64,000 bases of DNA, from the NCBI GenBank assembly GCA_963752255.1, contig CAVVXT010000019.1, positions 224,001 through 288,000 of the forward strand, read 5' to 3'. Origin of the DNA: Nitrososphaeria archaeon (GTDB lineage Archaea > Thermoproteota > Nitrososphaeria > JACIWG01). Positions 53,536 to 54,670 of this stretch are shown piece after piece. The notes under the pieces were generated by a model. The model was given only the letters and a program-made list of their open reading frames with translations, had not been told where the DNA came from and did no database searches. Position 1 is the stretch's first letter; each line of letters begins with the position of its first letter. The position numbers were made by a program, and so were the translations under genes.

Positions 53536-53931
53536 CTACTTCAGAGGTACATACAGACTTGAACGGGATGCACCAATGCCTGGGGTGCCGTGAACAACCT
53601 TTTTGTTTGTTATCGCGTATTCTCCGAGATAGTGGCCTATCATCTCAGGTTTTATTTCTACAGGAAAGAACTCTTTTCCATTATGGACTTGAATGGTTGC
53701 ACCGACCATGAATGGTAGAATGATCATGTCCCTTGCATGAGTCTTTACAGGGTTCTTTTTGGGGATTTCCTTCGATTTTTTGACATCGTCGAGAAGTTTT
53801 GTCTTTTCTCTACTTAACCCTCTGTTGAGGGAACGACGCATCCGTGATGGCAGAAGACCGATGAAGATCTCATACGACATTTCCTGCAACTGTTCAAGCG
53901 TGTAACCCCTATACTTAAACTCCTTAGGCGT
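53536..53931 (-). CDS. rps19: 30S ribosomal protein uS19, inferred ACG start
   Basis: ACG CCT AAG GAG TTT AAG TAT AGG GGT = (M)[17 protein letters not shown]; in-frame TGA at 53941-53943; [26 protein letters not shown]. Confidence 0.94.
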
Positions 53932-53935
53932 CCTT

Positions 53936-54670
53936 CTACCTCACCTCTAACATTCTCCTTATACGTTTCCTACCAGTTTTTCTCGGCGCTATGTGACCAA
54001 CTTTTCTGCCAGGTGGGGCATTTCTTGAAGTCGAAGTTGACTTTCCGGGATGCTGGTGTCTGCCTCCACCGAACGGGTGGTGTACGGCAGCCATCGCAAT
54101 ACCTCTCATACGCGGATAGAGTTTGATCTTTGCTTCCATCAAGTGATACTTCGCTCCGGCTTTAAGAAACGGTTTTTCTCCGAAGCCGCCCCCTGCTATT
54201 ACTCCCACTGTGGCTCTACACCTCCCATCAAGTAAAATCATCTTGCCGGATGGGAACTTTATAATACTGCCTTGAGCCGACTGCGAAAACAGTATTGCAG
54301 ATGTGCCGGCGGCTTTAACTAACTTGCCGCCATCTCCTGGATGTCTTTCAATATTACATATGGTGGAACCTTCGAGGACTTCTTTAAGCATCAAAATATT
54401 ACCATTTCTCATTCCGGCCTTCGGCCCCAGTTCGATATCTGAACCAACTACGGTGCCCTTGATTGCAGGAAGGTAATAGAACTTTTCTCCGATCTTCAAT
54501 TGAGCCAATGGTGCCATTCTTCCACGTTCATGTTGCAGTCTCATAACTGAGCCTACAGTCTTCTCTTCGCTAATAGGCGGGTAAAGCGTCTGACTAATTT
54601 TGCCAACCTTAGGGGCACGATACTGTGAATGCCCCATCCCTCTTCTCTGCTGAATCAACGACTTGCCCAT
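53936..54670 (-). CDS. rpl2: 50S ribosomal protein uL2
   Basis: [27 protein letters not shown]. Confidence 0.97.

Follow-up and report, generated by a model that had tools for sequence, protein, structure and literature searches.

The gene for ribosomal protein uS19 in this Nitrososphaeria assembly reads ACG at the position where its initiator codon should stand. We favor, at a probability of about 0.55, a model in which uS19 is an ordinary gene whose real start is ATG and in which the C at position 53930 is a single-base consensus error of the assembly, the remaining probability falling to a real mutation private to the source strain. Positions are those of the window, i.e. the whole 64,000-nucleotide stretch of DNA that was analyzed. 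In this model, translation in the cells would start normally at the ATG behind a GAGGTGA Shine–Dalgarno (SD) motif, directly after termination of the upstream uL2 gene, and the C at 53930 would belong to the many consensus errors of the assembly. Judged from the comparisons with related sequences described below, the codon appears to be neither a conserved or adapted ACG start nor a new way of starting translation.

An intact archaeal-type uS19 frame behind uL2

On the minus strand, the uS19 start region reads ...GAGGTGAGGTAG AAGG ACG CCT AAG GAG TTT AAG TAT AGG GGT. The codons of the uS19 frame ahead of ACG are TGA (53943-53941), GGT, AGA and AGG, the in-frame stop being the fourth codon upstream, and the sole in-frame canonical starts for the N-terminal part of the protein are the TTG at codon 15 and the ATG at codon 18 (Table 1). 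Neither has an SD ahead of it, and the ATG adjoins the letters CAGGAA. This is the arrangement that a first-pass annotation of the window had described (ACG in frame, TGA four codons upstream, no ATG, GTG or TTG before the TTG), and the sequence bears it out. The same annotation had called the SD strong, in agreement with the complementarity of GAGGTGA, over 7 nt, to the 16S rRNA 3′ end of the same genome, GGATCACCTCCT. The final three bases of the motif are at the same time the in-frame TGA of the uS19 frame. The uL2 frame ends in GAG GTG AGG TAG, with the stop at 53938-53936, and 4 nt separate this TAG from the ACG. The two genes are co-directional, and this spacing is the geometry expected for termination–reinitiation, from which translational coupling of uL2 and uS19 may be proposed on the layout of the genes.

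Table 1 Positions of the uS19 start region, neighboring and frameshifted genes of the window, and other genes with ACG in place of a canonical start. G000, source genome; G001, same-genus genome.
Feature	Position	Strand	Remarks
uS19 (rps19) frame	53536-53931	−	ACG to TAG stop, 131 codons plus stop; matches family models
ACG codon	53929-53931	−	Ancestral start-codon position; variable base 53930, plus-strand G in the window and A in relatives
SD-like GAGGTGA	53941-53947	−	9 nt upstream of ACG; within the last codons of uL2
uL2 (rpl2)	53936-54670	−	244-aa ORF; PF03947, 129.9 bits
TTG, codon 15 of uS19	53887-53889	−	Earliest in-frame canonical start; no SD in front
ATG, codon 18 of uS19	53878-53880	−	Start in the public gene call; 114-aa product
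uL22	52653-53117	−	PF00237, 85.1 bits; downstream neighbor of uS19
Enolase, split in two overlapping ORFs	4452-5697	−	One-base insertion relative to G001
SIMPL/DUF541 gene, split in two overlapping ORFs	59581-60376	+	One-base insertion relative to G001
P-type cation ATPase, split in two overlapping ORFs	60652-63445	−	One-base insertion relative to G001
RibL-like cytidylyltransferase (locus L169)	G000 C14:70495-71121	−	ACG at 71119-71121; ATG in G001; TTG in G002 and G008, same offset
VOC/glyoxalase-family gene (locus L181)	G000 C19:332619-333008	−	ACG at 333006-333008; ATG in G001 and G003
Thermosome (chaperonin) paralog (loci L144 and L192)	G001 C16:25281-26966	−	ACG; ATG in G000 and five other relatives

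The frame opened by ACG encodes a full-length uS19 of the archaeal type. It scores 191.9 bits against TIGR01025 (uS19_arch; cut-off 139), with residues 2-131 matching profile positions 2-135 of 135, 199.7 bits against NF003121 (cut-off 146) and 114 bits against PF00203 (cut-off 27; residues 33-114), while the bacterial model TIGR01050 aligns only from residue 31 on. The closest solved chains are those of Pyrococcus uS19 (4v6u_AT and 6sw9_T), in which chain residues 4-132 correspond to query residues 3-131. The N-terminal residues T-P-K-E-F-K-Y-R-G lie in frame with the core domain and follow the pattern M-x-(K/R)-E-(F/Y)-x-Y-R-G of the archaeal extension; the KEFxYRG motif, or a close variant of it, is present in all 110 related loci considered below, and the segment aligns to Pyrococcus as well as eukaryotic uS19. 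Because TIGR01025 aligns from residue 2 to profile position 2, the ACG falls exactly at the initiator Met position of an otherwise intact uS19, and this placement is not due to chance; the first-pass annotation had placed the codon there on the strength of the motif that follows it, and both the profile alignment and the homologous start codons of the related loci confirm it. uS19 is single-copy in the source genome. Although a canonical start is missing from the source assembly, this absence is a property of one DNA record and not of the uS19 protein family.

The expectation that standard gene callers would truncate the gene was correct as to the outcome, the public call (P0001, 114 aa) beginning at the ATG of codon 18; the loss amounts to 17 codons and not to the 14 that had been predicted. 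The product expected from the TTG at codon 15, of 117 aa, is absent from the protein collection. Whether the C is an error or real, the public uS19 annotation is short by 17 conserved residues.

The gene order on the minus strand is uL3-uL4-uL23-uL2-uS19-uL22-uS3, with uS3, uL23, uL4 and uL3 confirmed by profile, and uS19 sits where the conserved cluster has it, between uL2 and the pair uL22-uS3. Between uS19 and uL22 lies a gap of 418 nt (53118-53535) for which no minus-strand ORF of at least 100 aa is listed. An Rfam scan of 53000-54100 gave nothing at E ≤ 1.

Start codons in relatives and near-identical strains

We collected uS19 loci from 29 relatives of the same class and a further 80 from species-representative genomes titled Nitrososphaeria, Thaumarchaeota or Bathyarchaeia MAGs. 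At the position homologous to the ACG, the 110 related loci, which are to be counted as loci and not as independent genomes (the two sets overlap in at least one genome, G004), carry ATG in 87 cases, TTG in 19 and GTG in four, and no other codon; a shortened form of uS19 was found in none of the relatives examined. In G001, a genome of the same genus whose uS19 is 97% identical in amino acid sequence, the region reads TGA GGT AGA AGG ATG CCT AAG and differs from the source context solely at the start-codon base. Because all related loci are canonical and the G001 context is otherwise identical and has ATG, the ACG is, on this comparison, a T>C change that arose from an ancestral ATG.

Strains closer to the source than G001 have ATG as well. 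When contigs of four sequencing runs from three studies were compared with window positions 53400-54500, the contigs of runs X1 (1199 nt) and X3 (969 nt), which belong to one study, differed from the window by three letters each in ~920-950 nt, and both of these ~99.7% identical contigs have A at plus-strand position 53930, i.e. ATG on the minus strand. The contigs of runs X5 and X6 have no coverage of 53844-53991 and hence none of the ACG site. Among the runs listed, all of them contig sets and none recorded as RNA, the highest share of words was 0.77, and none appears to be the source of the assembly. A search of metagenome contigs with the 40-nt context returned a single match (L032), which has ATG. 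At the protein level, an entry (P0005) that agrees with the uS19 of the window at every residue from 2 to 131 and begins with M1 occurs on four Logan contigs, and the start-less 114-aa call P0001, for which the sources NCBI, Logan and ENA are given, occurs on one contig of 608,634 nt, which is the assembly's own. We considered whether the Logan tag of P0001 is an independent confirmation of ACG and rejected this, the sole contig counted being that of the assembly itself. ACG was thus reproduced in none of G001, X1, X3, L032 and the four Logan contigs, all of which have ATG or M1, and the ACG allele is private to the source assembly among sequences that are ~99.7% identical to it.

These results bear directly on the interpretation given in the first-pass annotation, namely that translation of this essential and highly expressed gene begins at a near-cognate ACG. 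The relatives and near-identical strains, all of which are canonical, give no support to such a start as something evolved or maintained, and the comparison of orthologous rps19 5′ ends, which that annotation had itself proposed as a check, gave ATG, GTG or TTG at every related locus, the outcome that it had named as a refutation. Its placement of the ACG at the initiator position behind a strong SD and its expectation of a truncated gene call stand, and its interpretation is partly supported.

The same 1.1 kb contains two further differences private to the window. One, at 53680, is synonymous. The other, at 54414 in uL2 codon 86, is non-synonymous, the window having GGA (Gly) where X1, X6 and G001 have GAA (Glu); we considered this E86G change as a possible sign of error and rejected it, residue 86 varying among relatives.

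Indels, substitutions and other ATG>ACG starts

The quality of the source genome (G000) was assessed by comparing the whole of it with 2.27 Mb of G001, to which it is 94.6% identical over 1.50 Mb; the median amino acid identity across 1643 shadow-filtered reciprocal-best ORF pairs is likewise 94.6%. Indels are clearly in excess in G000. In 107 cases, one ORF of G001 corresponds to two neighboring ORFs of G000, versus 21 cases in the reverse direction. Of the 103 splits in G000 that are out of frame, a single gap accounts for 90, namely a one-base insertion in 61, a one-base deletion in 28 and a two-base insertion in one. One-base frameshifts in conserved ORFs number 89 in G000 and seven in G001. 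The G000 sites lie mostly outside homopolymers, and a CTAG occurs within 7 nt (15-nt context) of 33 of the 89 one-base sites as compared to 2.6% of random windows (p = 3e-29), the CTAG-linked sites often reading ctaGgc. This suggests sequence-specific consensus errors, possibly tied to DNA modification at CTAG or GCTAG. Three of the frameshifts are in the window, in the enolase gene, the SIMPL/DUF541 gene and the P-type ATPase gene; Pfam domains run on across the break in each of them, and they are probably consensus errors. Overall, the roughly ninety frameshifts of G000, several of them in genes such as that for enolase, are best read as consensus errors.

The substitution statistics give a different picture, G000 showing no more substitution-type damage than G001. 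There are four in-frame stops in G000 and seven in G001. Lineage-specific amino acid changes, polarized by G004 over 13,825 positions in 57 gene triples, number 242 in G000 and 252 in G001, a comparison that, with an outgroup of 203 kb only, bounds substitution errors at ~1e-3 per base and is blind to rates near 1e-4. T>C transitions outnumber every other class of difference between the two genomes, and they show no excess towards G000 in any sequence context (16,022 versus 17,133 in total; 65 versus 54 at GGATG). A methylation-type systematic error at GGATG/CATCC was likewise considered and rejected, GGATG being present in 3707 copies and GGACG in 1746, with no T>C excess.

Start codons were compared across the same ORF pairs. 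The first canonical start is the same in 1157 pairs and different in 481; where it is the same, it is ATG in 666 pairs, TTG in 306 and GTG in 152, the figure for TTG being an upper estimate, as not all first starts are true ones. Where the first start of G001 lies upstream, G000 has ACG at the corresponding position in nine of 92 cases, and G001 has ACG in nine of 98 cases in the reverse direction, on which grounds a genome-specific excess of ACG at starts was rejected. Under a stricter comparison, in which an SD-like 4-mer was required in both genomes along with an extension of at least two codons, 13 starts are lost in G000, three of them by ATG>ACG, and 12 in G001, two by ATG>ACG and three by ATG>ATA. 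Thus ACG at lost starts is in excess neither over ATA, GTA or other codons nor in G000 over G001.

Four starts are validated by further relatives as ATG>ACG changes, three in G000 (uS19, a RibL-like cytidylyltransferase gene and a VOC/glyoxalase-family gene) and one in G001 (a thermosome paralog). The RibL-like gene lies downstream of that for diphthine synthase, its next canonical start is 89 codons on, and its 118-aa short form occurs in G000 only among the nine cluster members. The VOC gene is located ~45 kb past the end of the window; 118-aa short forms of it are also present in other assemblies (P0010 and P0011) and could be further start-less alleles or merely reflect the choice of the gene caller. 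In the thermosome paralog of G001, the next start in frame comes 46 codons after the ACG. Each of these three genes has an in-frame stop three codons upstream of the ACG and an SD-like GGTGA, GTGA or GTGAT. As in uS19, relatives confirm that ACG has taken the place of an ATG start; the three genes differ from uS19, which is essential and single-copy, in being less highly expressed or in having paralogs; moreover, only for uS19 have near-identical strains been seen directly with ATG. Each ACG start occurs in one of the sister genomes only and in none of the other relatives examined.

Consensus error, real allele and known initiation systems

Consensus error is favored because we take survival of a uS19 start loss to be rare: since uS19 is a single-copy gene for a universal ribosomal protein, a real loss of its start should be strongly selected against. 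The ancestral ATG, the confinement of the allele to one assembly, the ATG of the nearest strains and the many frameshift errors, three of them within the window, all agree with an error, as does the weakness of ACG in E. coli, where the excerpted text of Hecht et al. (bioRxiv 10.1101/063800) puts it in the class of codons that initiate at 0.1-1% of AUG or less. What speaks for a real C is of a different kind. The errors demonstrated in G000 are indels, and the ACG lies outside homopolymers and has no CTAG close by; in-frame stops, start discrepancies with or without a required SD, amino acid changes and T>C transitions are all unelevated; and the window derives from a genuinely distinct strain, with the other private differences at 53680 and 54414. 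Also, by our estimate, two more validated ATG>ACG starts exceed the random-error rates compatible with the nonsense counts, and the cleaner G001 assembly itself has ACG at the validated thermosome start. In rough numbers, which are our own estimates, a random substitution error at base 53930 has a probability of at most a few in 100,000, as bounded by the nonsense counts, and a real private T>C change one of ~1 in 1000 multiplied by its probability of survival in uS19, which is of the same order.

If the C is real, uS19 most likely starts at the ACG by near-cognate pairing. This account, in which a recent, strain-private T>C change leaves full-length uS19 to be made with initiator Met-tRNA, is one that we put forward tentatively and hold to be unlikely, if the strongest of those that accept the C. 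The 7-nt SD 9 nt upstream, together with ribosomes terminating on uL2 4 nt upstream, would offset the weak codon. In favor of it, the substitution statistics are without sign of substitution errors and T>C is the commonest class of change; the N-terminal 14-17 codons with KEFxYRG are intact and in frame; uS19 is single-copy, so that the organism could not live without expressing it; the SD can pair with the 16S rRNA 3′ end of the same genome and the spacing from uL2 is in the range for reinitiation; sfGFP begun at ACG in E. coli bore an N-terminal Met, as stated in the excerpted preprint (bioRxiv 10.1101/063800); and similar validated changes are present in the RibL-like and VOC genes and in the thermosome paralog of G001. 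Nevertheless, the allele was seen in no assembly or contig but this one, ACG has proved a poor initiator in measurements, and the stoichiometric need for uS19 implies that a strong fall in initiation should come at a cost. Nor does ACG stand out among the non-canonical codons that replace lost starts (with an SD required, 3 of 13 in G000 and 2 of 12 in G001, where ATA has 3 of 12), and a 2020 review of archaeal initiation (PMC7531240) names only AUG, GUG and UUG in the parts of its text that were available.

The other accounts of a real C fare worse. Translation from the ATG at codon 18 (or the TTG at codon 15) would give a uS19 lacking its first 17 (or 14) residues and keeping the bacterial-type core. 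We regard this as improbable: these are the only canonical in-frame starts, the public annotation uses the ATG, and the extents of the PF00203 match and of the TIGR01050 match imply that the universal core is retained, but neither codon has an SD, and the KEFxYRG segment that would be removed is present at every related locus, no relative being shortened. A defective or minority allele, i.e. a deleterious mutation in part of the population that reached the consensus at modest coverage, is less probable still; it would tell nothing of the normal expression of uS19. Metagenome bins are population consensus sequences, and the ACG is private while ATG alleles for the identical protein are present on four other contigs; yet a strongly harmful allele should not become the majority form of a gene that is essential and single-copy. 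Lastly, we give very little credence to an ACG maintained as a functional start in the lineage, through relaxed selection on start codons or C-to-U editing of the mRNA. The three validated ATG>ACG changes in G000 and the one in G001 would be in line with it, as would the frequency of TTG starts, but none of the ACG starts is common to the sister genomes or other relatives, there is no excess by codon or genome, and only an ordinary tRNA-Thr(CGU) and tRNA-Met(CAU) were found. Aragorn, which may have missed intron-containing tRNAs, predicted 39 tRNAs in all, with each of these two present once and no special ACG-reading initiator among them.

With a consensus error as the preferred explanation, the residual interest of the site lies in the recurrence of ATG>ACG at validated starts. 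Because this change recurs in two sister genomes, there is a small chance that ACG initiation is tolerated. It is doubtful, if tempting to speculate, that a soil/peat Nitrososphaeria lineage tolerates ACG starts that follow a good SD or an immediately preceding stop codon, even in essential genes; if it did, this would be the first natural evidence of near-cognate ACG initiation in an archaeon. Likewise, were the C real and uS19 full-length, the gene would be a natural case of ACG initiation of an essential, highly expressed archaeal gene, and would bear on the start-codon strictness of aIF1 and aIF2 and on the rescue of a weak codon by SD strength or termination–reinitiation. Start selection in archaea is of the aIF1/aIF1A/aIF2 type according to the available text of the 2020 review (PMC7531240), in which a term search found neither "ACG" nor "near-cognate". 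A search of the literature library for ACG start codons in archaea returned nothing relevant. In practical terms, when a conserved gene in a metagenome bin lacks a start, the near-identical strains and the error load of the bin should be compared first.

Finally, we note how the uS19 locus compares with known systems. With archaeal and eukaryotic-type uS19 (Pyrococcus furiosus/abyssi, PDB 4V6U and 6SW9; eukaryotic RPS15) it shares the full-length match, the KEFxYRG extension and the order uL2-uS19-uL22-uS3; it differs in that the source assembly reads ACG at the initiator where the related loci have ATG, TTG or GTG. Near-cognate initiation in E. coli, as presented in the excerpted text of Hecht et al., has in common with uS19 an ACG behind an SD that could be decoded as Met by the initiator tRNA, while the E. 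coli cases are engineered constructs in which ACG fell in the weak class, and the uS19 case is an unconserved codon in an archaeon with start selection of the aIF1/aIF1A/aIF2 type. As to termination–reinitiation, the available text of PMC10666635 describes it as efficient, both in Haloferax volcanii and in E. coli, only where genes overlap or lie very close together; in H. volcanii it falls by 40-60% when the distance is 13-14 nt and almost vanishes at 22-23 nt. Based on the parts of PMC6728339 and PMC10666635 consulted, uL2 and uS19 resemble the archaeal and bacterial gene pairs in being co-directional and in having a spacing within the efficient range, but the commonest native layout is an overlap of -4 or -1 nt with a canonical start, whereas uL2 and uS19 are separated by a gap of 4 nt.
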